A DNA stretch of 64,000 nt from an uncultured Gemmatimonadales bacterium (GCA_963708135.1 OY970192.1:4640001-4704000), one strand, 5' to 3'; shown: positions 46,126 through 64,000, counted from the first letter of the stretch. Notes: generated by a model not told the origin, from the sequence alone. Translations and numbers: made by a program.

Positions 46126-47041
46126 CCGGCCCGCCGGCGGGGGAGGACCTGCTGGCGCGCGCGAGCAGCAGCGCCGCGGCCACGATGAGGGCGATGCCGA
46201 GCACGCGCTCGGGCGCCAGGCTCTCGCCCAGCAGGGCGGCGCCCAGCACCGCCGCCACCACCGGCTCGGCCGTGGCCAGCATGCTGGCCGTGCCCGCGCG
46301 CAGGTGGCGCAGCCCCGCCAGGTAGAGGACGAACGCGGCGAGCGTGGGCAGCGCGCCGAGCGCGAGCAGGAGCGGGAGCGCGGCCGCCGGCGTGTGCGCG
46401 GCGATCCGCCAGGGCGGCGCGGCGAAGGCCATTGCCGGCGCAGCGAACGCGAAGACCCAGAAGGAGGCCCGCATCGGGTCGTGGTTCCGCAGGGCGCGCT
46501 TGCTGAAGAGAGTGTAGACGCCGTACAGCAGCCCGGAGCCGAGCCCCATGGCGATGGTGGCGGGCGCGAGCGCCGCCCCGCCGGTCAGAAGCGCCCGCGC
46601 GGCGCCGGTCACCAGGAACACCCCGGCCAGCACGAGCGCCAGCGCGCCGAGCTGCGGCGCGCCGAGCGGCTCGTCCTCCAGGAAGCGGGAGAGCACGACG
46701 ACGAACGCCGGAGCGGTGTAGAGGAGCGCGGCCGCCACCGCCACGGTGGTGCGAGCCACGGTCGCGAAGTACAGCGTCTCGAAGAGCGCGAAGGCGCCGA
46801 TCCCGTAGGCGGCGAAGAACGGCAGGTCCCGGAGCGGGACGCGGATGCGTGATGGGCCGGCCGCGGCCCAGGCGGCGAGCCCGAGGAAGCCGAGAGTGGC
46901 GCGGGCGCTGGCCAGCTCGATCGGGCTCAGGCCGTAGCGGTAGAGCGCCTTGCCGAAGAGGCCGAGGGTACCCCACAGCACCGCGGCGGCGAGCACCAGC
47001 GCCACGCCGAGCGCCGGCCGCCGGCCGCCGGCCGCCTTCAC
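46064..47041 (-). CDS. EamA/DMT family transporter
   Basis: About 10 TM; LLYTAPAFV, EPVVAAVL...LGE; GTG start overlaps upstream TGA. Confidence 0.88.
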   Translation of the reverse strand: MKAAGGRRPALGVALVLAAAVLWGTLGLFGKALYRYGLSPIELASARATLGFLGLAAWAAAGPSRIRVPLRDLPFFAAYGIGAFALFETLYFATVARTTVAVAAALLYTAPAFVVVLSRFLEDEPLGAPQLGALALVLAGVFLVTGAARALLTGGAALAPATIAMGLGSGLLYGVYTLFSKRALRNHDPMRASFWVFAFAAPAMAFAAPPWRIAAHTPAAALPLLLALGALPTLAAFVLYLAGLRHLRAGTASMLATAEPVVAAVLGAALLGESLAPERVLGIALIVAAALLLARASRSSPAGGPVRAASPAAAVPPTAPPPAAR

Positions 47042-49317
47042 TTGTTGGCCAGCGCCGTCCAGACGCCGAGCCGCGCCTCGTGCTTCTCCGCCAGTGCCGC
47101 CTGGCCGAGCGCATCGTGCGCCTGCGCGGCGGCCATGTGGGCGTAGGCGTAGTAGTACGGGATCCCCTGGGTCGATGCGTCGACCCAGTGCGTCCACTTG
47201 TCGGGGAAGCCGTTGCTGCTCACGAACACGTGCCACAGCAGACTGTCCGTGCGGGGCAGGTCGATGTAGCGGCCCGTCACCACCCGGTACGGGCTGTTCT
47301 GCGGCTCGGCCACGATGCCGTTCGCGGCGGACGGCTGCACCGGCCCGTCGTGCAGCTTGAAGGCGACGCCCTGGCGCACCAGGAACTCCCCGACGTTGAT
47401 GTCGTCGAAGGCCTGCGTCGTCGTGGCGTAGTAGATCGGCCGGTCGCCCATCGAGCTGGTCAGGATCCCCGTCATGAAGATGTCCGCCGGCAGCAGCACC
47501 TGCCCGGTCGGGATCGTCGTCTCCAGCCGGTCCGCGTGGAAGACCAGCGGGTTCTGTGTCTGGAACGGCGGCGTGGCCGCGATCTGCTCGATCTGCGCGT
47601 CCGTGAGCGGGAGGATGCTCTTGGTCGGCTTCCTCGTCAGCTCGGGGGTGTCGTAGAACGGCGTGCGCGGGTCCGGCACGTACGGCCGCTGGCAGATGAT
47701 GCGGGTCGGGTCCTGCGCCGCGCTCTCCCCCGGCGGGCAGGGCCGGGTCAGGTCGCGGAGCTGCTTCGTGTACCACGGCGTGTTGAGGTAGCTCATCACG
47801 ATGACCGTGACGTCCTTGCGCACGCCCTCCACCTCCTGCGCGTACCAGAGCGGGAAGGTGTCGTTGTCGCCGTTCGTGAAGAGCACGCCGTAAGGCTCGA
47901 CGCTGTTCAGCAGGTTGTACGCCCAGTCGCGCGCCACGTAGTCGCCGGCCCGCGAGGCCCAGCTCCAGTTGACGAACAGCGGGATCGCCGCCACCGCCAG
48001 GATCGGCGCCGTGAGCGCGAGACCGCGCCGGCCGCCGCCCTCGAAGCCCTCCGACAGCCGCCTCCACAGCGCCGCGAGCCCGATCCCGGCCCACAGCGCC
48101 CAGACCGAGAAGCTGACGATGAAGAAATAGTCGCGCTCGCGGACCTCGCGCATCTCCTGCGAGATCCCCTGTCCCGGATAGCTGTAGCCGTACTTGAAGT
48201 TGAGGTAGAAGGTCAGCCCCAGCGACAGCGTGGCGAAGAGCACCACCATGTACGCAAAGCTGATCCGGTCCCGCTTGTAGTGGCTCCAGGCGCCGTAGAT
48301 CCCGAGCGAGGCGAACAGCAGCGTGAAGAGCGGCCGCACGCCGCCGAACCACGAGGCCTTCCCCGCGATCGAGCGCGCCCACTGCCAGTCGAAGTACTGG
48401 ATATAGTTGCCGATCTGCGCGATCAGCAGCCCGATGTCGCGCGGCATGCGCGGGTCGATCGGGTTCGAGAACATCGACGGCTTGTCGTATTGCTTGCGCG
48501 CGAGCGATTCCAGCAGCGCGTGCCACGTGCTCGGGTTCGCCTCGTTGATCACCGGACCCAGCGAGGCACGGATCGGCAGGAACAGGTGGATCGACAGCCC
48601 CAGAACCGCCACCACCGCCGCCGCAGCCCACAGCTTCCAGTTGAGCAGCGTGCGCGGAGCCACCAACAGGATGAACACCACCAGCGCCGGCGCGGCCAGG
48701 AACGCCATCAGGTGGTTGCCCACCGAGAGGGCGAGGATGAACACCATGAACAGGATCAGGTTGTCATCCTTGCCCCGTCCCAGGTTGTCCCGCCACCGGA
48801 ACGCCAGCCAGCTGAGCAGCGCGATCGTGAACAGCGAGACCGTGTAGACCTTCTCGTTCACGTCCGACTGGTTCCACACCGTGAACGCCGTCGCCGACAG
48901 CAGCACCGCCGCCGCCGCGCCCACCAGGCGCACCACCCGGTGCTCCGTGTAGTACGAGAGGATCCGGTGCACCAGCAGAAACCAGCACCCGTGCGCCAGC
49001 GCGCTCATGGTCGCGCTGAACAGGTTGACTCGCTGCGCCACCGGCAGGCTCGTCCACGACAGCAGGACGTCCCATGCGCGCGCGAGCACCACGAACGTCG
49101 GGTTCCCCGGCGGGTGCGGAATCCCCAGAATGTGCGCCGTCGCTATGTACTCGCTCGTGTCCCAGAACGCCGTGGACGGCGAGAGCGTCACGAGGTAGAG
49201 GAGCCACACCGCCAGCGCGGCGATCCCCGCCGCCAGGTACGGTGGCCTGTACTCCTCCGCCTCGAGCCGCGCCGATTCTCCCCGCGGCGCCGCCATCGTC
49301 CCTGCTGTGGACTTCAT
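47038..49317 (-). CDS. DUF2723 / GT117 (TMEM260-like) membrane glycosyltransferase
   Basis: FWDTSEY, GIPHPPGNP, EVRERDYFF, GDNDTFPLWYAQEVEG.RKDV. Confidence 0.88.
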   Translation of the reverse strand: MKSTAGTMAAPRGESARLEAEEYRPPYLAAGIAALAVWLLYLVTLSPSTAFWDTSEYIATAHILGIPHPPGNPTFVVLARAWDVLLSWTSLPVAQRVNLFSATMSALAHGCWFLLVHRILSYYTEHRVVRLVGAAAAVLLSATAFTVWNQSDVNEKVYTVSLFTIALLSWLAFRWRDNLGRGKDDNLILFMVFILALSVGNHLMAFLAAPALVVFILLVAPRTLLNWKLWAAAAVVAVLGLSIHLFLPIRASLGPVINEANPSTWHALLESLARKQYDKPSMFSNPIDPRMPRDIGLLIAQIGNYIQYFDWQWARSIAGKASWFGGVRPLFTLLFASLGIYGAWSHYKRDRISFAYMVVLFATLSLGLTFYLNFKYGYSYPGQGISQEMREVRERDYFFIVSFSVWALWAGIGLAALWRRLSEGFEGGGRRGLALTAPILAVAAIPLFVNWSWASRAGDYVARDWAYNLLNSVEPYGVLFTNGDNDTFPLWYAQEVEGVRKDVTVIVMSYLNTPWYTKQLRDLTRPCPPGESAAQDPTRIICQRPYVPDPRTPFYDTPELTRKPTKSILPLTDAQIEQIAATPPFQTQNPLVFHADRLETTIPTGQVLLPADIFMTGILTSSMGDRPIYYATTTQAFDDINVGEFLVRQGVAFKLHDGPVQPSAANGIVAEPQNSPYRVVTGRYIDLPRTDSLLWHVFVSSNGFPDKWTHWVDASTQGIPYYYAYAHMAAAQAHDALGQAALAEKHEARLGVWTALANK

Positions 49318-49598
49318 TCGTCGTTCCGGCTGTCGGTTGGATCCTGCCTCCGCCGCTTTACCCGGCCCCGCCCCCGCCGTTCCGGCGGAAGCCTGGAAAG
49401 ATAGACGCTGCAGACGGCGGATTCCAGCCCGGCGCCCGCCGCGCGACCCCGCCCTATACGCCACCCAGCCCGAACCACCACTCCACACCCCGCCCGACGC
49501 GGGGACGCGGGGAAACGTCGAGCGGCGCGATCGCGTGCTTCGGCTGCCCGGCGAGGCGGGGGTGGGGGAATCACGGGGGGCGCGCGGACGGGAACGCC

Positions 49599-50544: not shown

Positions 50545-52581
50545 CTACCTTCGCGGCCGGGCCGACCCTCGGTGGCTAAGATGCTTTCTATTTCTCCTCC
50601 GCCACTGCTCCAGCAGCAGCCCCCCGCCTTCCAGCACCTCCGCTCGCCACCCGGGCGGCAGCCAGGTCGTCGCGCTGTACTCGGTCACGACGGCCGGCCC
50701 CTCGAGGCGGTCGCCGGCCGCGAGCGCCTCGCGCGCGAGCAGCCGGGCGGGAACCGTCTCTCCCCGGTAGGCGACGTCCCGCCGCTCGTTCCCCGGCGTT
50801 CCTCGGCCGCCGCGGGCGAGGCGGCGCTCGGGCGCGGGCGGCGCCGGCGCCGTCGCCTCGACGCGCAGGGTGACGGCCTCGATCGGCGCATCGGGACGGG
50901 CGTAGCCGTAGCGGGCCTGGTGGGCGGCGTGGAACGATGCCCGCCAGTCCTCGGCGCCGACCCGGAGCTCGTAGCTCTGCCCGACGTAGCGGGCATCCAC
51001 CATGCGCCGGACGGCCAGCGAGGCGGCCGGGAACCCCTCCACCTCGAGCTGGCGCACGGCTTCCCCGGCGAGGGCATCGAGCTCCGCCTCGAGCCGCCCT
51101 CCCTCCGCTTCCTCGGCTCGGAGCAGCAGGGTGCGCGACACGTCCTTCCGCACCGGGGAGACGAGCATCCCGTACGCCGAGAGCACGCCCGGATCCGGCG
51201 GCACCAGCACCCGCGCAACGCCGAGCCTCGCCGCCAGCTCGGCGGCGTGCAGCCCGGCGGCGCCGCCGAAGGGGACCAGCGTGAAGTCCGCCGGGTCGTG
51301 GCCGCGCTCGACGCTGATGAGGCGAAGCGCGCCCTCCATGGCGGTGTCCGCCACCGCGAGGACCCCCTCGGCGGCTGCCTCGGCCGAGCGGCCGAGCGCG
51401 CCCGCCAGCGCCTCGAGGGGCGCCCGGACCGCGTCGCGGTCGAGGCGACGCTCGCCGCCCAGGAAGGCATCCGGGGGCAGCCGGCCCAGCCAGACGTGGG
51501 CGTCCGTGACCGTGACGTGGCGCCCGCCGAGGCCGTAGCAGATCGGGCCGGGCTCCGCGCCCGCGCTCTCCGGGCCGACCCGGAGCGCCCCAGCGCCGTC
51601 CAGCCGCGCGATCGAGCCGCCGCCCGAGCCGACCGTGTGGATGTCGATCACCGGGACCGCCACGGGCACGCCGCTGATCTGGAACTCGCGCGTGTGCAGC
51701 GGGCGCCCGGGGCAGAGCGACACGTCCGTCGAGGTCCCGCCCATGTCGAACGTGATGAGATCGTCGAATCCCGCTTCGCGCGCGCGCGCGAGCGCACCGA
51801 TGACACCGCCGGCGGGACCCGAGAGCACCGTGTGCACCGCCTCACGCCGCGCCCGCGCGACCGGAATCGCGCCGCCGCCCGAGCCCATGATTCGGACCCG
51901 CGCCGCCCCCGACTCCGCGTCCAGCCGCCCCAGGTAGCGGTCCATGAGTGGCGCCACGTACGCGTTCACGACCGTCGTCGACAGCCGCTCGTACTCCCGG
52001 TACTCCGGCAGCAGCGCGGACGAGACGGCGATCGGGACGCCGAGCGCCTCGAGCGCCGCCGCCACGCGCCGCTCGTGCGCGGGATCCGCGTAGCTGTGCA
52101 GCAGGCAGACGGCCAGCGACTCCACCCCCCGCAGGCGTGTCGCGAGCGCGTCGAGCTCCTGCGCGTCCAGCGGCTCCTCCTCCCGCCCGTCCGGCCCCAG
52201 CCGGCCCGACACGCCGTGCCGATCCGCCCGCGCCACCAGCGGCGGCGGCCGGTGCCCGACGAGCGCGTAGAGCTGCGGCCGGGTCTGGCGGCCGATCTCG
52301 ATGATGTCCTCGAAGCCGCGGTTCGTCACCAGCCCCACAAGCGCGCCGCGCCGCTCCAGCAGCGCGTTCGTGGCCACCGTCGAGCCGTGCACGAGCACGA
52401 ACGGCGCCTCCCCGCCGAGTCCCGCCGCCGCGCGCACCCGCCGCACCCCCTCGAGCACCGCCGCCGCCGGGTCCACCGGCGTCGACGGCAGCTTCAGCCG
52501 GTGCACCACGCCGCCGGCGAGGCAGACCACGTCCGTGAACGTGCCGCCCGTGTCGACCGCGATGATCGCTTGATCCGGCAT
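50545..52581 (-). CDS. hydantoinase A / 5-oxoprolinase family ATP-dependent subunit
   Basis: VDTGGTFTD, HGSTVATNALLE, LSGPAGG, FDMGGTSTDV, GPESAGAEPGP, FGGAAGLH. Confidence 0.93.
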   Translation of the reverse strand: MPDQAIIAVDTGGTFTDVVCLAGGVVHRLKLPSTPVDPAAAVLEGVRRVRAAAGLGGEAPFVLVHGSTVATNALLERRGALVGLVTNRGFEDIIEIGRQTRPQLYALVGHRPPPLVARADRHGVSGRLGPDGREEEPLDAQELDALATRLRGVESLAVCLLHSYADPAHERRVAAALEALGVPIAVSSALLPEYREYERLSTTVVNAYVAPLMDRYLGRLDAESGAARVRIMGSGGGAIPVARARREAVHTVLSGPAGGVIGALARAREAGFDDLITFDMGGTSTDVSLCPGRPLHTREFQISGVPVAVPVIDIHTVGSGGGSIARLDGAGALRVGPESAGAEPGPICYGLGGRHVTVTDAHVWLGRLPPDAFLGGERRLDRDAVRAPLEALAGALGRSAEAAAEGVLAVADTAMEGALRLISVERGHDPADFTLVPFGGAAGLHAAELAARLGVARVLVPPDPGVLSAYGMLVSPVRKDVSRTLLLRAEEAEGGRLEAELDALAGEAVRQLEVEGFPAASLAVRRMVDARYVGQSYELRVGAEDWRASFHAAHQARYGYARPDAPIEAVTLRVEATAPAPPAPERRLARGGRGTPGNERRDVAYRGETVPARLLAREALAAGDRLEGPAVVTEYSATTWLPPGWRAEVLEGGGLLLEQWRRRNRKHLSHRGSARPRR

Positions 52582-52995: not shown

Positions 52996-54486
52996 ATGCC
53001 GAGCCCCGCCTTCGACCACTTCGTCCGCCTCGCCGCGGGCGCCCGGCTCGTGCCGGTCTGGCGCGAGATCCTCTTCGACACGGACACGGCGGTCACCGCC
53101 TACGCCAAGCTCGCGCGGCCGCCCTTCGGCTTCCTGCTCGAGTCCGTGGTCGGCGGGGAGAAGTGGGCGCGCTACACCTTCCTGGGCACGAGCCCGCGCG
53201 CCGCCTGGCGCCTCCAGGCCGGCCGCCTGACCAGCAGCTGGACGCCCGCGGCCGGCTGGAGCGAGGCGCGCCGGGTCGAGGATCCGCTCGGCGAGCTCGA
53301 CGACCTCCTGCGCGCGCACACCATCGCCGACGTGCCGGGGCTGCCCCGCTTCATCGGCGGCGCCGTCGGCTACCTCGGCTACGACGTGGTGCGGACGCTC
53401 GAGCGGCTGCCCGACGCGCCGCCGGATCCGCTGGAGCTGCCCGAGGCGCTGCTCCTCTTCACCGACACCGTCCTGGCCATCGACAACGTCTTCGGGAAGG
53501 CGCTCGCCGTGGCGACGGTGGACACCCTCGGGGCCGACGCCGGCGAGCTCCGGCGCCGCTACGACGCCGCCGCGCAGCGCCTCGAGACGCTCGTGCGCAC
53601 GCTGCGCGACGCGCCTCCGCCGCCCGCCCTCCAGCCCAGCGCCGGAGCCGAGCCGAGCTTCCACAGCAGCTACACGCGCGAGCGCTACCAGGCCGATGTC
53701 GAGCGCATCCGCGAGTACATCCTCGCCGGCGACGCCTTCCAGGTCGTCCTCTCGCAGCGCCTGGAGCTCCCCCTCGATGCCGCCCCCTTCGACGTCTACC
53801 GCGCGCTCCGCTCCCTCAACCCCTCTCCCTACCTCTACTTCCTCGAGCTCGACGGCGTCTCCCTCGTGGGCTCCTCCCCCGAGGTCCTCGTCCGCGTCGA
53901 GGACGGCCGCGCCACCGTCCGGCCGATCGCCGGCACCCGGCCGCGAGGCGCCACCGAGGCCGAGGACCTCGCGCTCACCCGCGAGCTCCTCGCCGACGAG
54001 AAGGAGAGAGCCGAGCACCTCATGCTCGTCGACCTCGGCCGCAACGACGTCGGCCGCATCGCCCGCTTCGGCTCCGTCCGCGTAAGCGAGTTCATGGCCG
54101 TCGAGCGCTACAGCCACGTCCTCCACATCGTCAGCCAGGTCGAGGGCGAGCTGCGCCCCGGCCTCTCCGCCATGGACGTCTTCCGCGCCTGCTTCCCCGC
54201 CGGCACCGTCAGCGGCGCACCCAAGATTCGCGCGATGGAGATCGTCGATGAGCTCGAGCCCGTCCGGCGCGGCCCCTACGCCGGAGCCGTCGGCTACTTC
54301 TCCTACGGCGGCGCGAGCATGGACACCGCCATCGCCATCCGCACCCTCGTCGCCGCTGGCGGCCGGGCCTTCGTGCAGGCCGGCGCCGGCATCGTCGCCG
54401 ACAGCATCCCCGAGCGCGAGTACGAGGAGACGCTCGCCAAGGCCCGGGCGCTCCTGCGCGTGCTCGGATCGCTGCGGAGGGAGTAG
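52996..54486 (+). CDS. trpE: anthranilate synthase component I
   Basis: FLLES, GDAFQVVLSQR, NPSPY, IAGTRPRG, KERAEHLMLVDLGRND, PAGTVSGAPK. Confidence 0.92.
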   Translation: MPSPAFDHFVRLAAGARLVPVWREILFDTDTAVTAYAKLARPPFGFLLESVVGGEKWARYTFLGTSPRAAWRLQAGRLTSSWTPAAGWSEARRVEDPLGELDDLLRAHTIADVPGLPRFIGGAVGYLGYDVVRTLERLPDAPPDPLELPEALLLFTDTVLAIDNVFGKALAVATVDTLGADAGELRRRYDAAAQRLETLVRTLRDAPPPPALQPSAGAEPSFHSSYTRERYQADVERIREYILAGDAFQVVLSQRLELPLDAAPFDVYRALRSLNPSPYLYFLELDGVSLVGSSPEVLVRVEDGRATVRPIAGTRPRGATEAEDLALTRELLADEKERAEHLMLVDLGRNDVGRIARFGSVRVSEFMAVERYSHVLHIVSQVEGELRPGLSAMDVFRACFPAGTVSGAPKIRAMEIVDELEPVRRGPYAGAVGYFSYGGASMDTAIAIRTLVAAGGRAFVQAGAGIVADSIPEREYEETLAKARALLRVLGSLRRE

Positions 54487-54524
54487 AGGCCCGCGTGCGG
54501 GCAGGTGTGGGCGGCGGGGCGGAG

Positions 54525-54597
54525 CGAATTCGAATCCAGCGGCCGCAGGCCGCGGAATCCGAATCCGAATCCGGCTGTTGCCGCCGTGACAGGTGCG
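54525..54597. repeat. GGATTC-rich dispersed repeat, copy C (inverted relative to A)
   Basis: GAATCC x3 core plus ~20 bp degenerate flank homologous to 50325-50346. Confidence 0.8.
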
Positions 54598-54848
54598 TCA
54601 GGCCTCGAGGCCGTCTCGCCACCCCGAGCCCCGAGCCCCGAGCGATTCTGTAACACGACCGACGGCCGGAGCGAATCTGTCACATTTCCCCGACCTTGCA
54701 CGTTATGGCAGCGATGCTTCCGGCTGCCACCACCGTACTGGATGCCGCGCGGTCCGCCCCGCGCGGCGGCGGCCACAGGGGCTGGGCCGGGGGGCGAGAG
54801 GGCTCGGAACGGGCGCGGCCACGTCCCTTTCGAGCCAGGACGGGTTTC

Positions 54849-54877
54849 TTGACAGGGCTGGAAACCCGCGCTACTCT
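54849..54877 (+). promoter_or_regulatory. sigma-70-type promoter of TBDR operon
   Basis: TTGACA-17-TACTCT. Confidence 0.65.
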
Positions 54878-55031
54878 CGACCCGGCTTTGCCTCTTCTTG
54901 CCGGAAATCGCAGCTCGCGACAGGGCCCTGGTCACGGAGCCGTCCGCCGCCGCACAACGGGGGACGTTCGAACTCCGGGCCGGAGTCATTTCGGGACGTC
55001 AGTTCCAAGTTCACTCGACTGGAGGGACCGC

Positions 55032-58000
55032 ATGCGCATCTCAGTTCGGGGCACCGGGCCTCTGGCCTCCCTCGTTCTGCTGCTCCTGGGCCTGGCCATG
55101 CCGGCGGGCGCACAGCAGACGACGGGGAAGGTGCAGGGTCGCGTGACCGACGTGGGTGGCCAGCCCCTGGCAGGGGTGCAGGTCATCGTGGTCGGGACGG
55201 GTCTCGGCAACCTTACGGATCAGCAGGGCTTCTACTTCATCAACAACGTGCCCGCGGGCGTGCAGGACATCCAGGCCCAGTTCATCGGATACCAGACGAC
55301 GACGGTGCAGGGCCAGCGGATCACGGCCGGCTACACCACGACCGTGGACTTCAAGCTGGCCCAGCAGGCGGTGGCGCTCAAGGCGATCACGGTCCAGGGC
55401 GAGCGCAACCCGCTGGTGCCGCGCGACAAGACGGTCTCGGGCTCGATCGTGACCGGCGACATCGTGCGCCAGCTGCCCGTGGACAACGCGAACGCCGTGA
55501 TCGCCCTCCAGCCGGGCGTGATCAGCTACGGCGGGCAGTTCGTGATCCGCGGCGGCCGGCCGGGCGAGGCTTCGGTGTACGTGGACGGCGTGCTGGTCCG
55601 CAACTTCGACCGCGGTGAGCAGGGCAACGTGAGCGTGGACCTGAGCGGGCTCGAGGAGGTCAACGTCCTCACGGGCGGCTTCGGTGCCCAGTACGGGCAG
55701 GCGCAGTCCGGGGTGATCAACTACGTCACGCGGACCGGCGGCACGCGCACGAGCGGCGCCTTCAACTTCGGCACGGACGAGTGGGCGCCGAACAGCGAGC
55801 GGTGGGGGTGGAGCGTCCTGCACGCGAACATCGACGGGCCGCTGGTGAAGAACCTCCTGACCTACCAGATCGCGCTGGGGGCGCAGGGCATGCGCGACCG
55901 GAGCCCGCAGTTCACCGACATCGCCGGCCCCGAGGGGATTCCGGTCCAGCAGCACTACTTCCGGCCGACCGGCATGCAGGCGCTGGCGGGCGGCGATTCC
56001 GCCATGAGCTACGAGGAGATCACCGGCCTCGGGCCGCGCCGGCCGTACAACAACGGCGACGTCTACAACGCCACCGCCGGCCTGCGCTTCAGCCCGAGCA
56101 GCTACACCAAGATCACGGTGACCGGTGTGGCCGGCCGCAGCCAGGGGCTGAACTTCAACTCCGGCTACCAGTTCCGGCCGTGGTCGTTCGGCGCCTACCG
56201 CAACACCAGCGACCTGGCGCGCGTCGGCCTCGAGCAGATCCTCTTCCAGAGCGCCAACAGCCAGGCGGTGCTCCGGATCAATGCCGCCTATCAGAACGAC
56301 CAGCACCGCAGCGGCGTGCGCGCCGACACCACCGGTCTCGAGCCCTCCGGCCCGGACTTCCTCGGCTTCCGCTTCAGCAACTACAAGCTGATGTTCGAGA
56401 ACGTGACCCCGGAGATGTTCCTCACGCGCGTCAACTCGATCCGCGCGGGTGCCAGCGCCCTGCCGTTCTATCCGGCCTACACGCTCGACTGCGGCGGCCA
56501 CCCGTGCACCAAGGCGGAGGCCACGGACAGGTTCAACGGCGTGAACGGCACCGACACGCCCTACGGAATCCTCGGCCCGAGCCCGTTCAGGACGACCGGC
56601 TTCGGCGACGGCCTCTACTACTCCGGCGAGAAGACTTATAGCCTGGACGCCAGCCTCGACCTGCAGGCCGGCCGCTTCAACCGCATTGGCGCCGGCGTCC
56701 AGTACTACAAGAAGAACGTCGGCCACATCAGCGTCAGCAACTACAACACCACCTTCCAGGACGTCTACGCCGTCAAGCCGACGATCGGCGCCGGCTACCT
56801 GACGGATCGCCTCGACCTGGGCGAGATGGTGCTCGACCTGGGGCTGCGCCTCGACTACTACTCGAGCGACGCCAAGTACCCGGCCGCGCCCGGCGTCGTC
56901 TACCCGTTCGAGCCCGACGCCTCGACGCTGCAGTACTGCGAGTCGCCGCCGCCGGCCGGCCAGATCACCTGCACGCCCAAGCTGATCGGCCAGGACAACC
57001 TCTGGAACCTGAGCCCGCGTCTCGGCGTGGCGTTCCCGATCAGCGACGCGACGAACTTCCGCCTGAGCTACGGGCACTTCTTCCAGCTGCCCTCCTTCGT
57101 CAACCTCTACGATGGCATCAATACCGACCTCAACTCGACGAACACCAACCAGCTCTACGGCCGGCCCATCCCGGCCATGCGCACCGTGCAGTTCGAGGTC
57201 GGCGTGACGCACCTGTTCAACCCGACCACGGTGCTCGACGTAACGGCGTACAACAAGAACAAGCAGGCCGACGCCACCTACCGCATCCAGAACTTCAACC
57301 TGCCTCCGTCCTACGGCGGGCCGACCGACATGCGCGTCCTCACCAACCTGGACTTCGGCGCGGCCAAGGGCGTCAACGTCCGCCTGACGCGCCGCTACGG
57401 CCAGTTCTTCACGGCGATCCTGTCCTACAGCTTCCTGGACTCCAAGGACACCGGCTCCGATCCGACCAGCTACGTCTACACTTTCGGCCGCTTCACGGAC
57501 CCGGTGACCGGCGCGGCGCTCTCGCCCGCGCAGGCAATGCAGAACACGGACTTCGACATCAACCACCAGTTCACCATCGAGAGCACGGCCAACCTCGGCA
57601 AGGACGTGCTCAGCGGCACCGGCTGGAACCCGCTGCTCCGCAACACCAACCTGTCTCTCACCTTCCTCGCGCACAGCGGGCTGCCGTGGACGACCTCGAG
57701 CAGCGTGGGCGCCAGCGGCACCGGCGGCAGCGGCGCGCGCTTCACCGAGCTCCAGAACTCCTCGCGGATGCCGTGGTTCTCGAACGTCGATGGCCGCTTC
57801 ACGCGCGGCTTCACCCTGGCCGGCAGCCGGCTCGCGGCGTACCTCGAGGTCCGCAACATCCTGAACACCCGCAACATCACCAATGTCTACGGCTACACGG
57901 GCTCGCCCACGAACCCCGGCGCCCCGGCGGTGCTCACCGCCGAGCTGTGGAACGGGACGCCCAGCGGCCCCCTCGACGTCGGGACCGGAACGGCCTCCGA

Positions 58001-58187
58001 GCAGCTCCAGAAGCAGCGGCAGCAGCAGATGCTCGCCGTGTACGGGCTCGCGGACGCGGACCCGAGCACGCTCAGCGTGGCCGAGCAGAAGAACATCGGG
58101 CTGCTCCAGTACGTGAACACGCTCGGGCTGCCGGGCAACTACAGCGCGCCGCGCCGCTGGCGGCTCGGCATCGAGTGGACGTTCTGA
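55032..58187 (+). CDS. large TonB-dependent receptor with N-terminal carboxypeptidase-regulatory-like domain
   Basis: Signal peptide; TGKVQGRVTD; plug IRGGR..E...VDG, LTGGFGAQYGQAQSGVIN; SPRLGVAFP; terminal WTF. Confidence 0.9.
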   Translation: MRISVRGTGPLASLVLLLLGLAMPAGAQQTTGKVQGRVTDVGGQPLAGVQVIVVGTGLGNLTDQQGFYFINNVPAGVQDIQAQFIGYQTTTVQGQRITAGYTTTVDFKLAQQAVALKAITVQGERNPLVPRDKTVSGSIVTGDIVRQLPVDNANAVIALQPGVISYGGQFVIRGGRPGEASVYVDGVLVRNFDRGEQGNVSVDLSGLEEVNVLTGGFGAQYGQAQSGVINYVTRTGGTRTSGAFNFGTDEWAPNSERWGWSVLHANIDGPLVKNLLTYQIALGAQGMRDRSPQFTDIAGPEGIPVQQHYFRPTGMQALAGGDSAMSYEEITGLGPRRPYNNGDVYNATAGLRFSPSSYTKITVTGVAGRSQGLNFNSGYQFRPWSFGAYRNTSDLARVGLEQILFQSANSQAVLRINAAYQNDQHRSGVRADTTGLEPSGPDFLGFRFSNYKLMFENVTPEMFLTRVNSIRAGASALPFYPAYTLDCGGHPCTKAEATDRFNGVNGTDTPYGILGPSPFRTTGFGDGLYYSGEKTYSLDASLDLQAGRFNRIGAGVQYYKKNVGHISVSNYNTTFQDVYAVKPTIGAGYLTDRLDLGEMVLDLGLRLDYYSSDAKYPAAPGVVYPFEPDASTLQYCESPPPAGQITCTPKLIGQDNLWNLSPRLGVAFPISDATNFRLSYGHFFQLPSFVNLYDGINTDLNSTNTNQLYGRPIPAMRTVQFEVGVTHLFNPTTVLDVTAYNKNKQADATYRIQNFNLPPSYGGPTDMRVLTNLDFGAAKGVNVRLTRRYGQFFTAILSYSFLDSKDTGSDPTSYVYTFGRFTDPVTGAALSPAQAMQNTDFDINHQFTIESTANLGKDVLSGTGWNPLLRNTNLSLTFLAHSGLPWTTSSSVGASGTGGSGARFTELQNSSRMPWFSNVDGRFTRGFTLAGSRLAAYLEVRNILNTRNITNVYGYTGSPTNPGAPAVLTAELWNGTPSGPLDVGTGTASEQLQKQRQQQMLAVYGLADADPSTLSVAEQKNIGLLQYVNTLGLPGNYSAPRRWRLGIEWTF

Positions 58188-58196
58188 GACTTCCCA

Positions 58197-58227
58197 GCGG
58201 TGGCCGGGCTGCACGCCCGGCCACCGC
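58197..58227 (+). other. intra-operon 13-bp hairpin
   Basis: GCGGTGGCCGGGC/GCCCGGCCACCGC, no U tract; a similar hairpin lies at 61806-61831. Confidence 0.6.
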
Positions 58228-58248
58228 CATTCAAGGAGAAACTCCGAC

Positions 58249-61200
58249 ATGAGGCCAATTGTGAATGCGGCGATGCGGCTGGCTAAGCGCGTGCTCGCGG
58301 GCGGCGTGCTGGTGGCGGCGCTCGCCGGGCCGGCGGCCGCGAAACCGGGGAAGCCGGGGAAGCCGAACCCGAAGTCCCCGTTCAACCTGAACGCGGCCAC
58401 GACCACCCTGCTCAACGGCAACGAGTGGTCGTGCGGCCTGGACAATCTGGGCGACATCTGCGTCAACCCGGCCGGCAGCTCGGTCGGCGGCGGCGGCTGG
58501 TGGCCGCAGGGCACGCAGAACCAGTACATCTTCAACACCGGGCTCCAGCTCGGTGCCATCGTCGGTGCCGACGGCGGCGCCTGGGCCGGGGACACCATCG
58601 CGGACCACTTCTTCGACGCGTACGGCGCCTTCAACTCCGGCGTGCCGATCACCAACATCTTCCTGTCGAGCGACCCGGCCGACCTCGACTCCTGGCCGCA
58701 GGACTGCTACCTGACCAATCCGGCCACGGGCGAGCAGGTGAAGACGCTCGGGCAGTTCGACAGCTGCGTTCAGTACTGGGACGCGGACCCCAAGAAGGGC
58801 TTCGCCGACGGCCACCCGATGGGCCTCAAGGTCGTGCAGCACTCGCTCGAGTGGGCGTACTCGACCAACAAGGACATCATCTTCTTCATCTTCACCTTCA
58901 CCAACGTCAGCAACGACCCCGGCTTCCTCGCCCGCGTGCCGGACGCGCCCGCCGGCGGCTTCACGCTGACCAACATGTTCGCGGCCTTCGGCGCCGACCC
59001 GGATGAATCCGCGGACGAGGCGGGCGACAACTACGCCACCGTCGTCCCCGACCAGAACATGGGCGTGAACTGGCAGTGGGACTTCTCGGCCCCGGATTTC
59101 GTGCCCTATCCGCCCAACTTCGATGCCGCTCCGGGCTTCTTCGGCGTGAAGTTCCTGAAGGGGCCGCCGAACACGGCCGACACGGCGATCATTCGCAGGA
59201 TCGGCGCGGTGGTGGATACGGTGCAGCCCGGGCAGCCGCTCGGGATGACCTTCTTCTCGGTCAACACGAACGGCGGCGCGTTCCCCGACCCGACCACGGC
59301 GCACCAGGCCTACCGGTACGTGTCCGGCCACCTGAGCGCGGCTGAGCAGCAGGCCTGCTCCCCGTTGCCCGGGGTTTGCTACGTGGACCTGGCCTCGCGG
59401 GCGGACACCCGCTTCATCGAGTCCTCCGGGCCGTTCAGCCTGAAGCCCGGCGAGTCCGCGCAGATCGTGGTGGCCTACGTCGCCGGCGCACCCGTGCCGG
59501 GCACGTACGTGAAGGGCACGCCGATCCCGATCGGCAGCGTCGCCGACACCACGCGGCCGATCGAGAAGGTGATGGGGCGGGGCTACGACCAGCCGTTCCC
59601 GAGCCTCTTCACCAACGCCCGCAACGCGCAGGCGATCTTCGACGCCGGCTTCATCCTGCCGGGCGCGCCGCCGCCGCCGAACGTGACCGTCGTCCCGGGC
59701 GACCACCAGAACACGGTCATCTGGGATGCCGCGCCCGTAAACCTGGCCGATGCGTACTACCAGATCGCGTCGCAGCAAACGATCAACGGCGAGCCGAACC
59801 CGCTCTACAACCCGGCCTACCGGGAGCACGACTTCGAGGGCTTCCGCGTCTACCGCAAGACGAGCGCGAGCGACCCCTGGACGCCGATCGCGCAGTTCGA
59901 CCTGGCGAACGGGATCACGCAGGAGGTGACGCCGCTCACGAAGGCGCTCAACCTGAATGGCGACACGATCGTGATCGTGGCCGACACGGCCAGTGTCTGC
60001 CGGGCCGGCACGGCCAGCGAGCTGGGGCTGGGCGCGAACTTCGCCGGCTGCGCGGCGGAGACCGGGCTCAAGTTCGCCATCGTCGACAAGGGCGGCCCGT
60101 TCCCCGATCCGTCCGCGGGCCCGGGGCTGGTGAACGGGCACACCTACTACTACGCGGTCACGAGCTTCGACATCAACTCGCCGCTCAGCGGCCCGAGCTC
60201 GCTCGAGTCCGCGCGCGTGCTGTCCAACGAGGCCGCCGGAACCCCGCGCGCGAATGCGGCCGGCTTCGTGGCGGCGGATGTGTCGGCACCGACCCTCATG
60301 GGCGGTGGAAAGGCGCTGGACCCGAGCGCGACTGTGACCATCGACCCCTCGGCGGGGACCTTCTCCGGCCCGCAGCCCGCGAGCAACGGTCTCAACATCA
60401 ACCTGGACGTGTACGACCCGGCGGCGATCCCGCAGGGTAACTTCTCCGCCGCCATCGATTCGGTGATCCCGATCAACGATGCGGGCGTGACCTTCGTCGG
60501 CGGCCACACAATGACCTCCGGCGGCAATGCGCTGGGCGCGGCCACGATCTACTACTCTACCGTGACCACGCCGGACACGAGCTACCAGGTCCGGACGGAG
60601 GTCCAGAGTCCGTTCGGCTACTACACGGCCGGCGAGGCGAACGTCGACATTGCGAACGCGCCGGTGGCCGGAAAGGGCACGAACCACTACGCGGGCAACC
60701 TGCACGCTTGGTTCGACTACGGCTCGCAGATCTACAACTCCGGCTCGGAGGCGGTAGGCTGGCTGCGCGCCGGGCAATGGCCGGATGGTTCCGGCGGCTC
60801 GCGCTGGTTCTCCGGCTCGCCGGAGGCCAACCCCACGCTGGCGCAGGCGGCAGGCAGCCTGCCCGGTGTGGACTCGATCGTCAACCTGGCCAGCCAGTAC
60901 GGCGCCAACGCCAACCTGCGTTGGCAGGTCTACCTGATGTTGACCGTGTATCACGCGGCGGACTATGAGATCACCTGGGGCGACAACGGCTCGATCAGTC
61001 AGGTGATGGATCTGTCGAACAACACGGAGGTCCAGTTCAACCCCGAGTTCCGGGGCGGGACGTGGGGCTTCCTGCCGGACGGCTCCGGTGACGGGATCCT
61101 CTCGTTCGGCGACTTCTGGACCATCAGCCCGCTGGCCGAGTGGTGGTGCGCGCCGGACGTGAACTGCATTCCATTCGCGCAGCTGAAGCAGACGGCGACC

Positions 61201-61797
61201 ATCATGCCGATCTCGATGGCGCCGCCCTCGGGCTACAACCTCGACACCTCGGGCTCCGACGCCACAGGCTTCGGCCTCTACATCGGAGGCGAGGAGTACC
61301 TGTTCAAGACGAGCTCGCTGCCGACTTCGGGGACGAAGTGGGTGCTGCGCACCTACGAGGGCAAGGTCGCGCAAGCCGATGATGGGACGTACTCGTGGTC
61401 GGCCAATACGCTCCGTTCGCCGACAGTCCCCGGGCTGTCCGCGCAGGTGTCGGTCAATGCCGCGGCCACCGTTGACCTGGCTACGGCCGACCTGAGCAAG
61501 GTGCACACGGTTCCGGACCCGTACTACGTGACGAACACGCTGGAGACCAACCAGCTGCAGAAGAAGCTGATGTTCGTCAACCTGCCGCCGCAGGCGATCA
61601 TCCGGATCTACTCGCTGTCCGGGACGCTGATCGCGGTCGTGAACCACGACGACCCGTCCGGCGGCGGGCAGGAGTTCTGGGACCTGCGTACCCGTAACCA
61701 GCAGTACGTGGCGAGCGGCGTCTACTTCTACCACGTGGAAGCGCCGGACGGGAAGACGAAGGTCGGCAAGTTCACCGTCATCCAGTACGCCCAGTAA
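58249..61797 (+). CDS. large secreted beta-rich protein with FN3-like domain and T9SS type-A-like C-terminal domain
   Basis: Signal peptide; FEGFRVYRK...LVNGHTYYYAVTSFD; C-terminus VPDPY...IRIYSLSGTLI...WDL...VASGVYFYHV...KFTVIQ. Confidence 0.8.
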   Translation: MRPIVNAAMRLAKRVLAGGVLVAALAGPAAAKPGKPGKPNPKSPFNLNAATTTLLNGNEWSCGLDNLGDICVNPAGSSVGGGGWWPQGTQNQYIFNTGLQLGAIVGADGGAWAGDTIADHFFDAYGAFNSGVPITNIFLSSDPADLDSWPQDCYLTNPATGEQVKTLGQFDSCVQYWDADPKKGFADGHPMGLKVVQHSLEWAYSTNKDIIFFIFTFTNVSNDPGFLARVPDAPAGGFTLTNMFAAFGADPDESADEAGDNYATVVPDQNMGVNWQWDFSAPDFVPYPPNFDAAPGFFGVKFLKGPPNTADTAIIRRIGAVVDTVQPGQPLGMTFFSVNTNGGAFPDPTTAHQAYRYVSGHLSAAEQQACSPLPGVCYVDLASRADTRFIESSGPFSLKPGESAQIVVAYVAGAPVPGTYVKGTPIPIGSVADTTRPIEKVMGRGYDQPFPSLFTNARNAQAIFDAGFILPGAPPPPNVTVVPGDHQNTVIWDAAPVNLADAYYQIASQQTINGEPNPLYNPAYREHDFEGFRVYRKTSASDPWTPIAQFDLANGITQEVTPLTKALNLNGDTIVIVADTASVCRAGTASELGLGANFAGCAAETGLKFAIVDKGGPFPDPSAGPGLVNGHTYYYAVTSFDINSPLSGPSSLESARVLSNEAAGTPRANAAGFVAADVSAPTLMGGGKALDPSATVTIDPSAGTFSGPQPASNGLNINLDVYDPAAIPQGNFSAAIDSVIPINDAGVTFVGGHTMTSGGNALGAATIYYSTVTTPDTSYQVRTEVQSPFGYYTAGEANVDIANAPVAGKGTNHYAGNLHAWFDYGSQIYNSGSEAVGWLRAGQWPDGSGGSRWFSGSPEANPTLAQAAGSLPGVDSIVNLASQYGANANLRWQVYLMLTVYHAADYEITWGDNGSISQVMDLSNNTEVQFNPEFRGGTWGFLPDGSGDGILSFGDFWTISPLAEWWCAPDVNCIPFAQLKQTATIMPISMAPPSGYNLDTSGSDATGFGLYIGGEEYLFKTSSLPTSGTKWVLRTYEGKVAQADDGTYSWSANTLRSPTVPGLSAQVSVNAAATVDLATADLSKVHTVPDPYYVTNTLETNQLQKKLMFVNLPPQAIIRIYSLSGTLIAVVNHDDPSGGGQEFWDLRTRNQQYVASGVYFYHVEAPDGKTKVGKFTVIQYAQ

Positions 61798-61848
61798 AAC
61801 CGGATCCGGGGGCGGGGCGGCCCGCCCCCGGGTCAACAGGAGGAGACC

Positions 61849-62925
61849 ATGAGGAAGGTACTGAAGAGCGGCGCGCTCGCCGGCCTGGCCCTGCTCTGCG
61901 CGGGATTGCCGCTCCGCGCGCAGGGGACGCAGCCGGAGAACAACATCCCCTACGGCACGCGCGGGGGCGAGTTCCTGCTCCTGCCGGTCGGGGGCCGGGG
62001 CACGGCCATGGGGATGGCGTTCGATCCGCTGGCGAACGACGTCACGGCCATGTTCTGGAATCCGGCCGGGCTCTCGCTCATGCCGGGGGCGGGCGCGGAG
62101 GTGAGCCGGATCAACTACCTCGCGAACACGAGCTTCACCTGGGCCGGGCTCGCGATGCCGATGGCCGGTGGCGACGTGGCGATCGGGCTGCAGATCGGCG
62201 TGTTCGGCTTCTCGGACCAGCCGGTCTACACCGTGGACCAGCCGGACGGGACCGGGCAGACCTACTCCGTGTCCGACACGTATGTCGGCGCGACGTACTC
62301 GCAGCAGTTCAACGAGCGGTTCAGCTTCGGCGCCACGGCCAAGTTCATCAACGAGAGCCTGGCGAGCGCGCACGCGTCCACGGTCGGCGCCGACTTCGGC
62401 GCGAACTACCACGCCCGGATCGGCGGCCGGATGATCCGCGGCTCCTTCACCGTCACGAACATCGGCGGCACGCTGAAGCACAGCGGGCCGGCGCTGGACA
62501 CGACGCTCACGGGAGGCTCGGCGGTCGAGTTCCGGACGAAGGGCTTCGAGCTGCCGTCGTCGTTCCGGGTGGGGCTCGCCTACGATCTCCTGAACTCGTC
62601 GAGCAACCGGCTGACGGCCTCGGGCGAGTTCCTCCAGCCGACGGCCGCCGACATCAGCGGCGCCTTCGGCGCGGAGTACGCGCTGAGCCACGTGGGCGGG
62701 AGCGGCTTCAACGCTGCGCTGCGCGGCGGCTGGAACATGCAGACCGACAAGGGGTTGGATGTAGCCGGGTCGACGATGAACGGCGCCGGCAACGCCGGTC
62801 TCGCGTTCGGGCTCGGCGTCGGTTACGACTTTTCCAAGACGAGTTCCTTCGGATTCGACTACGCCTGGCGGAGCGCGGGGCTGCTCGGGAACGAGAACCT
62901 GTTCAGCCTGAACGTGCACTGGTAG
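61849..62925 (+). CDS. PorV/PorQ family outer-membrane beta-barrel
   Basis: FLLLPVGGRGTAMG...MFWNPAGL; SFGATAKFI; LPSSFRVG; FDYAW; terminal W. Confidence 0.85.
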   Translation: MRKVLKSGALAGLALLCAGLPLRAQGTQPENNIPYGTRGGEFLLLPVGGRGTAMGMAFDPLANDVTAMFWNPAGLSLMPGAGAEVSRINYLANTSFTWAGLAMPMAGGDVAIGLQIGVFGFSDQPVYTVDQPDGTGQTYSVSDTYVGATYSQQFNERFSFGATAKFINESLASAHASTVGADFGANYHARIGGRMIRGSFTVTNIGGTLKHSGPALDTTLTGGSAVEFRTKGFELPSSFRVGLAYDLLNSSSNRLTASGEFLQPTAADISGAFGAEYALSHVGGSGFNAALRGGWNMQTDKGLDVAGSTMNGAGNAGLAFGLGVGYDFSKTSSFGFDYAWRSAGLLGNENLFSLNVHW

Positions 62926-62963
62926 CAGACGGGTCCGAGGGTCCAGCACCCGAGGAGTCACAG

Positions 62964-64000
62964 ATGGAGCAGGTAACGCGGGCATCGGAGCTGGGATGCC
63001 GCGTTCGCCGCGCGGGCAGGTGGCTGGCCGTTCTCACGGCCGCCACCTGCCCGTTTGGCGCGGCGGTCGCAGCGCAGCAGCCCAGCGGGCTGACCGTCAA
63101 GACCTACCGTTTCTGGCGGCCCCACGACATCACGATGGTCGAGACGTACGCCAACGTGCCGTGGCGGGCGCTCACCTTCGCGCAGGCCGGCGCCCAGGCG
63201 ACCGCCCACTTCGAGACGACCCTCGAGGTGAAGGATGCACAAGGCACCGTGCTGGCCACGCAGTCGTGGGCCGACTCGGTGCGCGGGGCGGCGCTCTCGA
63301 GCGCCGGGATGATGCGGGCGAGCTCGATCGAGCACGGCACGCTGAACCTCAAGCCGGGCCGCTACGTGTTCACGATGCGGGTGAAGGACACGGCCAGCGG
63401 AAAGGTGGTCTCCGGCGTCGATACGGTGGAGGCGTTCGCGAGCGAGCCGCGCCACAGCGACCTGGTGGTGGCGGCGTCGATCGCGTCGCTGTCTGCGGAT
63501 TCCGCGGCGCCGGCCGCGGCGCTGCGGCGGGGCGAGCTCGTGGTGCTGCCGAACCTGGAGGGCGCCGTGACGGCCGAGCAGCCGAACGTGCCCCTCTTCG
63601 CTGAGCTGTACAACTCCGCCGCGCAGCCGGAGACGGCGCAGGCGGTGGTGCGGATCACGAGCGACGCCGGGTTCCACCACGAGACGCCGCCGCGCGTCCG
63701 CATCGTGGAGCCGGGGATCGGCGTCGAGGCGCTGGCCATGAACCTGACCGGGCTCCCGCCCGGCGACTACGAGCTGCACCTCGAGTGGAAGTATGCGAAC
63801 GAGACCGCGGCGGCGGGGCAGCCGATCCGCATGCTGCCGATGGGCGCGGGCGAGGTCACGCTGGCGGCCCCGGATGCATACGACGCCATGGACGTCGCCC
63901 AGCTCGACAGCGTCTTCGGCCCCCTGCGTTACGTGGCCACGGACGACGAGAAGGCGGCCTTCGACCTGGCCAAGGACGCGGGCTCGAAGCGCAGGGTGCT
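62964..64000 (+). CDS. secreted protein, probably GWxTD-domain (truncated by window end)
   Basis: Frame open to window end; signal peptide, Ig-like segments (LKPGRY, LPPGDY), then PLRYVATDDEKAAF resembling the start of a GWxTD domain; the GWxTD motif itself is not in the window. Confidence 0.6.
   Translation, partial: MEQVTRASELGCRVRRAGRWLAVLTAATCPFGAAVAAQQPSGLTVKTYRFWRPHDITMVETYANVPWRALTFAQAGAQATAHFETTLEVKDAQGTVLATQSWADSVRGAALSSAGMMRASSIEHGTLNLKPGRYVFTMRVKDTASGKVVSGVDTVEAFASEPRHSDLVVAASIASLSADSAAPAAALRRGELVVLPNLEGAVTAEQPNVPLFAELYNSAAQPETAQAVVRITSDAGFHHETPPRVRIVEPGIGVEALAMNLTGLPPGDYELHLEWKYANETAAAGQPIRMLPMGAGEVTLAAPDAYDAMDVAQLDSVFGPLRYVATDDEKAAFDLAKDAGSKRRV

Follow-up and report, generated by a model that had tools for sequence, protein, structure and literature searches.

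In Porphyromonas gingivalis's type IX secretion system (T9SS), PorZ and PorU are components of the attachment complex and are anchored via the barrels PorQ and PorV, according to the excerpt of one report (PMC5562754), while an excerpt on Myxococcus xanthus describes the TonB-dependent protein Oar as required for the secretion of the protease PopC (PMC6434023). The locus considered here lies at the 3' end of a 64,000-nucleotide stretch of one strand (hereafter the window) from an uncultured Gemmatimonadales bacterium (GCA_963708135.1 OY970192.1:4640001-4704000), whose genome is a single contig of 5.45 Mb at about 70% GC. It encodes a TonB-dependent receptor, a large secreted protein with a T9SS-like C-terminal domain (CTD) that is referred to below as the cargo, a barrel of the PorV/PorQ family and a GWxTD-domain protein. 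The balance of the evidence tips slightly towards reading this module as a SusC/SusD-like outer-membrane nutrient-capture complex, in which the surface partner would be exported by SprA and tethered to the barrel by its uncleaved CTD.

The four genes are all present on the plus strand, as the original prediction had proposed, with essentially the coordinates that it gave (Table 1), and the identities that it assigned are borne out. Specifically, the receptor, read from its probable start (MRISVRG...), consists of a signal peptide, a CarboxypepD_reg-like N-domain, a TonB-box-like stretch, a plug and a large barrel, and it scores above the Pfam cut-offs for CarbopepD_reg_2 (PF13715, 53.7 bits), for the plug (PF07715, 39.1 bits against 23.9) and for the TonB-dependent barrel (PF00593, 53.4 bits against 27). 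It is not a member of the SusC/RagA family, for which it reaches 32.9 bits against a cut-off of 368.25 with a match limited to the N-terminal domain (TIGR04056), and a profile search of PDB sequences detected likeness to solved TonB-dependent receptors in the plug only. The cargo has exactly the predicted length and bears a signal peptide; its first Cys does not occur before residue 62 and hence it has no lipobox. The PorV-like character of the barrel holds at the level of the family model, and a profile of its orthologs matches the solved PorV of F. johnsoniae (E 1.4e-16). The barrel is below both equivalog cut-offs (PorQ, NF033711, 70.5 bits against 220; PorV, NF033710, 36.4 bits against 250) and is thus a member of the PorV/PorQ family but the ortholog of neither. 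Lastly, the fourth gene, which runs past the end of the window and had been called GWxTD-like, encodes a true GWxTD protein once read whole, with both hidden Markov models (HMMs) over their cut-offs (TIGR04514, 69.1 bits against 28; PF20094, 37.7 bits against 26.9) and a GWQTD motif in the translation.

Table 1. Coordinates of the module, its surroundings and related loci (window positions unless a locus or genome handle is given)
Feature	Position	Strand	Description
TonB-dependent receptor	55032..58187	+	about 1051 aa; ORF (open reading frame) from 54696, ATG 55032 the probable start
Cargo/partner protein	58249..61797	+	1182 aa; signal peptide, supersandwich, FN3-like region, middle region, CTD
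Galactose-mutarotase-like beta-supersandwich	58393..59658	+	cargo residues 49-470 (about 45-470 by model); pLDDT (predicted local distance difference test) mostly 80-93
Type-A-like T9SS CTD	61495..61797	+	cargo residues 1083-1182; most conserved part of the cargo
PorV/PorQ-family outer-membrane barrel	61849..62925	+	358 aa; NF033709 136.4 bits (cut-off 90)
GWxTD-domain protein	62964..64000 in the window, gene to 64406	+	480 aa; 406 nt beyond the window end
SprA	G000:C1:3235923-3246076 (L094:7923-18076), with its M28 peptidase and lptF/lptG neighbours		2063 aa; 481.5 bits against 200; 1.46 Mb from the module
S8 subtilase with PorV/PorQ-family gene directly after	L096:9359-13469 (G000:C1:4604859-4608969)		subtilase 1042 aa; barrel gene 76.5 bits; upstream of the window, at a distance of about 31 kb
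trpE	52996-54486		Pfam Chorismate_bind 316 bits
Spacer from trpE to receptor start	54487..55031	+	presumed promoter region; several imperfect inverted repeats
GC-rich hairpin, receptor-cargo spacer	58197..58227	+	13-bp perfect stem, 5-nt loop; no T tract after
GC-rich hairpin, cargo-barrel spacer	61803..61834	+	14-bp stem, 93% complementary
Gene 5	L013:490-2538 (window-equivalent 64490-66538)	+	co-oriented, directly after the GWxTD gene

The order of these genes is strongly conserved. A scan of species-representative genomes returned 441 stretches that encode a relative of the cargo, nearly all of them titled Gemmatimonadota, and among the best 80 loci, counting those with enough flank, the receptor is directly upstream of the cargo in 52 of 54, the barrel directly downstream of it in 69 of 75 and the GWxTD gene after the barrel in 61 of 67. 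Most of the exceptions are either additional copies where the genome has a full module as well (for instance L074, L087 and L090) or lone copies (L062 and L086); the paralogs at these five loci keep the conserved CTD and have no adjacent PorV-like gene, and the one at L086 lacks the receptor too. Moreover, the receptor-cargo-barrel trio is present in all three genomes fetched from another class, with a GC content of 51-62%, and no GWxTD gene was found after the trio in these three, which indicates that the trio is the core and that the GWxTD gene is an addition within the class of the window. The gene order thus recurs across the phylum, more than chance would produce. Consistently, the cargo profile matched in 104 genomes of an even 201-genome sample of the phylum (the unpublished G057 and G157 being among those counted), the cargo family comprises proteins of 1200-1350 aa with 142 matches, every named one from Gemmatimonadota, and a search with the CTD region of the cargo returned 1298 proteins, of which, among the 120 matches listed, every named one is again from this phylum. 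The module is therefore a conserved feature of the Gemmatimonadota for which we found no published description, as literature searches on T9SS in Gemmatimonadota or the Fibrobacterota-Chlorobiota-Bacteroidota (FCB) phyla and on PorV with TonB or SusD returned none.

The part of the cargo that connects it to the T9SS is its C-terminal end, a beta-sandwich of the Ig-like type and of the 80-100 aa length seen in solved CTDs. The type-A-like CTD that had been predicted is supported by its fold and is borderline by its sequence: the TIGR04183 model, with a cut-off of 23 bits, gives 19.9 on the protein and 25 in a six-frame search of the genome, the best sequence match is the C-terminal end of PorZ (27.5 bits, E 1e-6), and one homolog of the cargo is labelled by NCBI as a "T9SS type A sorting domain-containing protein". 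In the AlphaFold model of the cargo (41-sequence alignment, mean pLDDT 76), residues 1077-1179 superimpose on the CTD of PorZ as the best structural match (Z 13.6, root-mean-square deviation (rmsd) 2.1, 92 residues aligned, 25% identity) and also on the CTD of PorU (Z 11.5, rmsd 2.6, 91 aligned). Mean pairwise identity within the cargo family is 62% in the CTD, against 50% in the FN3-like region, 47% in the supersandwich and 32% in the middle region, the non-CTD parts ranging from 30 to 50%. Such conservation matches a domain with a lasting role on the exported protein more closely than a signal that is discarded.

At the other end of the mature cargo, the beta-supersandwich has as its best matches the non-catalytic N-domains of a dextran dextrinase (9ju0; VIA-align Z 18.4, rmsd 3.4, 254 aligned) and of a glucoamylase (1lf6; Z 17.8, rmsd 2.9, 233 aligned), with further matches to the N-domains of enzymes of glycoside hydrolase families GH94, GH65 and GH116; the same fold is found in the carbohydrate-binding N-domains of GH15, GH65, GH94 and GH116 enzymes. 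The supersandwich fold usually binds carbohydrate, and the fold alone shows no function. An FN3-like stretch follows, and then a middle region of about 415 residues (661-1075). Foldseek with the whole cargo model gave low-TM generic Ig/FN3 matches only, and profile searches of PDB sequences returned nothing for the cargo and nothing for the GWxTD protein. The model is mostly beta rather than the helical SusD fold and the signal peptide is not that of a lipoprotein, and the cargo is accordingly not SusD-like. The abundance of glycoside hydrolases and phosphorylases among the structural neighbours of the N-domain, together with the numerous Asp, Asn and Arg residues that are invariant within positions 49-470, could also speak for a surface enzyme, an adhesin or a coat protein that is displayed on the barrel, with coupling to the receptor limited to co-regulation. 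This explanation is unlikely, since the matches cover non-catalytic N-domains and no catalytic domain was matched, and since the adjacency of receptor and cargo is maintained across classes of the phylum, at GC contents from 51% to 70%.

The proposal that the cargo is held by the neighbouring barrel was addressed by modelling residues 1075-1182 of the cargo together with the barrel. The complex scored 0.89, against 0.01 for the best of three controls, the runs agreed in at least 86% of the contacts and the pLDDT of the partner was at least 79. Of 157 solved complexes 116 attain the mark used for such models, as do 2 of 215 mismatched pairs, benchmark counts that apply here only roughly because the model was built on custom alignments. 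Conserved positions are enriched in the predicted interface on both sides, at 17 of 58 interface positions against 42 of 275 others in the barrel (p 0.012) and at 21 of 35 against 22 of 73 in the CTD (p 0.003), and this enrichment is independent of the confidence of the complex model. Hence the claim of the original prediction that a CTD-bearing protein next to a TonB receptor goes with a private PorV-like barrel is supported by synteny, by the complex model and by the conservation of both the interface and the CTD.

The part of the prediction that fails is the independence of the module from SprA, as it had been conceived as a self-contained system that might not need the SprA/PorKLMN core. 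The genome encodes a SprA well above the cut-off (Table 1), and in the 201-genome sample SprA is found in 157 genomes (a count that includes the unpublished G057, G157 and G182) and in 103 of the 104 cargo-positive ones, the single exception being G048, with a weak cargo match only; 54 genomes have SprA without the cargo and 43 have neither. What stands of that claim is that the canonical core is incomplete. PorU was not detected in the source genome (NF033707, 18.3 bits against 420; no match to PF01364), and it is over the cut-off in 18 of the 201 genomes, which belong without exception to three families from other classes, with none in the class of the window, so the model does work in this phylum; CTD-like candidates are also far more numerous in the PorU-positive genomes. 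GldL, GldM, GldN and PorP gave no match in the source genome, with models that had no positive-control genome, so that this is a non-detection only; across the sample GldM was found in 0 of 201 genomes and GldL over the cut-off in 0 of 201, the sensitivity of both models being unproven, and the Pfam GldM domain PF12081 was found in 0 of 5 genomes, four PorU-positive relatives included, likewise without a positive control. A candidate for GldK was rejected, as the only GldK-like match is an EgtB that lies beside EgtD-like and GCS2 genes, in an ergothioneine-type cluster (L106:6897-10468, G000:C1:4122897-4126468) of an EgtB-like protein (DinB_2 and FGE-sulfatase), a histidine methyltransferase and a GCS2 ligase.

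In 30 genomes, from place lists inspected by eye and with G057 left out, the cargo gene and sprA share a contig and a strand and are 9-23 kb apart. In the source genome the gene after sprA encodes an M28 peptidase and lptF/lptG are divergent from sprA, an arrangement shared by G059 and G191 (L100/L101 and L103). What separates the module from sprA in these two genomes is a set of housekeeping genes (for a PPC lipoprotein, CtaA, an amino-acid permease and LptF/G), so the linkage may be inherited gene order, and its value as a functional link is weakened. The proximity of sprA bears on a different explanation, according to which the cargo and the barrel would be part of the T9SS machinery itself, as a PorZ-PorQ-like attachment sub-complex whose supersandwich binds lipopolysaccharide or another glycan to anchor other substrates, the receptor being linked for some other reason. 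PorZ is the best match of the CTD in both sequence and structure and PorQ the best equivalog of the barrel, as such a sub-complex would have it, yet both equivalog scores are far under their cut-offs, the body of the cargo is a supersandwich rather than the propellers of PorZ, and PorU, the partner enzyme of PorZ, is missing from the class. Moreover, the cargo family is absent from 54 of the 157 SprA-positive genomes, which means that it is not a core part of the T9SS, the intervening genes up to sprA are housekeeping ones, and the tight link with the TonB receptor is left unaccounted for. We regard a machinery role as highly unlikely.

The lack of a detected PorLM-type motor has a bearing also on the direction of transport through the receptor, because a TonB-powered route would supply the energy that such a motor provides. 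In this scenario the TonB-dependent barrel would be an exporter that moves the 1182-aa protein outward in the manner of Oar, with the PorV-like barrel as its next recipient. The excerpt on Oar (PMC6434023) offers a precedent for a TonB-dependent transporter that is needed for protein secretion, and the CarboxypepD_reg N-domain and the very large barrel of the receptor would be in line with such a role. No sequence feature indicates export through the receptor, however, and the cargo carries a T9SS-type CTD and almost invariably co-occurs with SprA, and 2 of 54 loci have orphan paralogs of the cargo with no receptor next to them. The exporter hypothesis is accordingly very improbable.

The nutrient-capture reading is grounded on the family memberships, the gene order, the co-occurrence with SprA, the folds of the N-domain and of the CTD, and the conservation of the latter. 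In the mechanism that we propose, the TonB-dependent receptor would be an energised import channel and the cargo its surface partner, which would leave the cytoplasm by its Sec signal peptide and then cross the outer membrane via the SprA translocon using the CTD. As no PorU sortase was found in the class, the CTD is proposed not to be cut off; it would stay docked on the dedicated adjacent barrel, as PorZ does on PorQ and PorU on PorV, and the docking would hold the supersandwich, probably glycan-binding, at the cell surface beside the receptor. The GWxTD protein would be a class-specific accessory. What we infer is export via SprA, retention of the CTD, physical association with the receptor, the glycan nature of the ligand, and an importing rather than a sensing role.

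Several observations weigh against this interpretation. The CTD-barrel score may partly reflect likeness to solved PorV structures: PorV is present in 7 solved entries, some of which hold bound substrate, and the pass of the complex model may thus show likeness rather than binding by this copy. The contact between receptor and cargo is inferred, no ligand site was identified in the supersandwich of the cargo, and the same fold is also known without a binding role, for example in the periplasmic domain of YidC (Z about 12). The middle 415 residues of the cargo and the GWxTD domain are without an assigned fold, the CTD falls below the TIGR04183 cut-off in the protein scan, and at 6 of 75 loci the cargo paralog has no barrel of its own. 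The absence of the cargo family from about a third of the SprA-positive genomes is a further point, as is the fact that the sampled genomes are related and not independent, so that the co-occurrence of SprA and cargo overstates their link and is only suggestive. Finally, without detected GldL, GldM, GldN and GldK the power source of the SprA translocon is unexplained.

A wider proposal would extend the nutrient-capture reading to the whole class Gemmatimonadetes, which would run a pared-down T9SS made of SprA and substrate-specific PorV/PorQ-like barrels, with no PorU and no PorK, PorL, PorM or PorN. The module would then be a new class of TonB-dependent uptake machine with a capture subunit permanently docked by its uncleaved CTD on a private barrel, and energy delivered by TonB-ExbBD via the receptor might replace the motor. 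We consider this proposal decidedly speculative and rather unlikely as a whole. Independently of it, SprA is common in this large and poorly studied soil phylum, PorU is limited to some of its classes and PorL and PorM are undetectable, which makes the Gemmatimonadota a natural setting to ask what SprA and PorV-family barrels do without the remaining Bacteroidota machinery, and what powers export.

The PorV-family model matches at five places in the source genome, and one of them belongs to a second pair of a large secreted protein and a private barrel. Specifically, upstream of the window an S8 subtilase gene is directly followed by a PorV/PorQ-family gene (Table 1). The C-terminus of this subtilase aligns weakly with the CTD of the cargo (hhalign E 0.0062, probability 6%), and the pair might be an analogue of PorU-PorV. 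In another S8 subtilase, encoded at a different place in the genome, the CTD is more distinct (TIGR04183, 22.7 bits; hhalign E 1.8e-5, probability 78%). An HMM of the cargo CTD has the cargo itself as its only significant match in the genome, and TIGR04183 matches number two, plus one weak match by hhalign. On this count the genome appears to hold few CTD proteins, at least two of which adjoin a private barrel.

The GWxTD protein is modelled (pLDDT 87) as a signal peptide, two Ig/FN3-like sandwiches and a C-terminal GWxTD domain made of helices and a small sheet. Structure searches with residues 41-293 gave generic Ig-like matches only, and a protein-atlas look-up of the GWxTD domain (305-480) returned GWxTD clusters only, from Gemmatimonadota, Bacteroidota and Acidobacteriota. 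In the literature that was searched no paper mentions the GWxTD domain, and the module offers a first genomic context for it.

As regards the layout of the locus, trpE is followed by five genes that are all on the plus strand, namely the four of the module and gene 5, which the original prediction did not mention. The four genes had been described as lying behind one promoter and as separated only by hairpins. In the interval 54300-64000 no sigma-70-like site was found, against 0.4 expected, and a terminator scan returned just two weak terminator-like sites on the minus strand, fewer than the shuffle mean. Hairpins are present in two of the three spacers, and none was found in the third, between the barrel and the GWxTD gene; the hairpin at 58197-58227 is not called a terminator by the scan. 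The product of gene 5 has TPR-like helices after a signal peptide, and its GWxTD-like motif is degenerate, at 24.7 bits (cut-off 28). The gene was ruled out as a conserved member of the module, as its position is not kept in relatives; in other Gemmatimonadales its slot is taken by a PPC-domain protein (L100:11690-12766 and L102:11759-13423).

A Gln directly follows the likely cleavage site of the signal peptide in four of the five proteins, in the forms AGA-QQ, RA-QG, AA-QQ and LA-QS; these four are the receptor, the barrel, the GWxTD protein and the product of gene 5, and the cargo has a Lys instead. The pattern recalls the "Q-rule" that the excerpt of PMC5837995 describes for Bacteroidetes. 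On the minus strand, ahead of trpE, the window encodes a homolog of TMEM260-like protein O-mannosyltransferases (47038-49488, 124 bits) and a hydantoinase/oxoprolinase (50545-52560), whose overlap with trpE is due solely to a spurious 5' extension of the ORF.

Compared with the canonical T9SS of Bacteroidota, the genome shares SprA, five PorV-family matches and CTD-bearing proteins, and differs in that PorU was not found in its class, GldK, GldL, GldM, GldN and PorP were undetected and CTD proteins are few. The pairs PorZ-PorQ and PorU-PorV resemble the module in placing a large surface protein on a PorV/PorQ-family barrel, a likeness that is drawn here from model docking and from a CTD that is closest to those of PorZ and PorU. 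Conversely, the body of the cargo consists of a supersandwich and Ig-like domains instead of the propellers or the C25 peptidase, the barrel reaches neither equivalog cut-off, and the module is tied to a TonB receptor and is not universal among SprA-positive relatives. What it has in common with Oar and PopC is that a TonB-dependent barrel is tied to what becomes of a secreted protein. PopC is not known to have either a T9SS CTD or a PorV partner.

With the SusC/SusD systems of Bacteroidota, such as RagA/RagB, the likeness lies in a TonB barrel of about 1000 aa that has a CarboxypepD_reg N-extension and is encoded directly upstream of a partner of carbohydrate-binding type, and in the strong conservation of the gene order. 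Unlike in those systems, the receptor of the module is outside the SusC/RagA family and its partner is neither a lipoprotein nor a helical SusD-like protein; its anchor would be a CTD on a separate barrel. If this is true, the module would represent a third means of equipping a TonB-dependent transporter with a substrate-binding partner, alongside the lipoprotein lids of the SusD type and the soluble proteins of the hemophore type, in which the partner is held by a T9SS tail on a barrel of its own.

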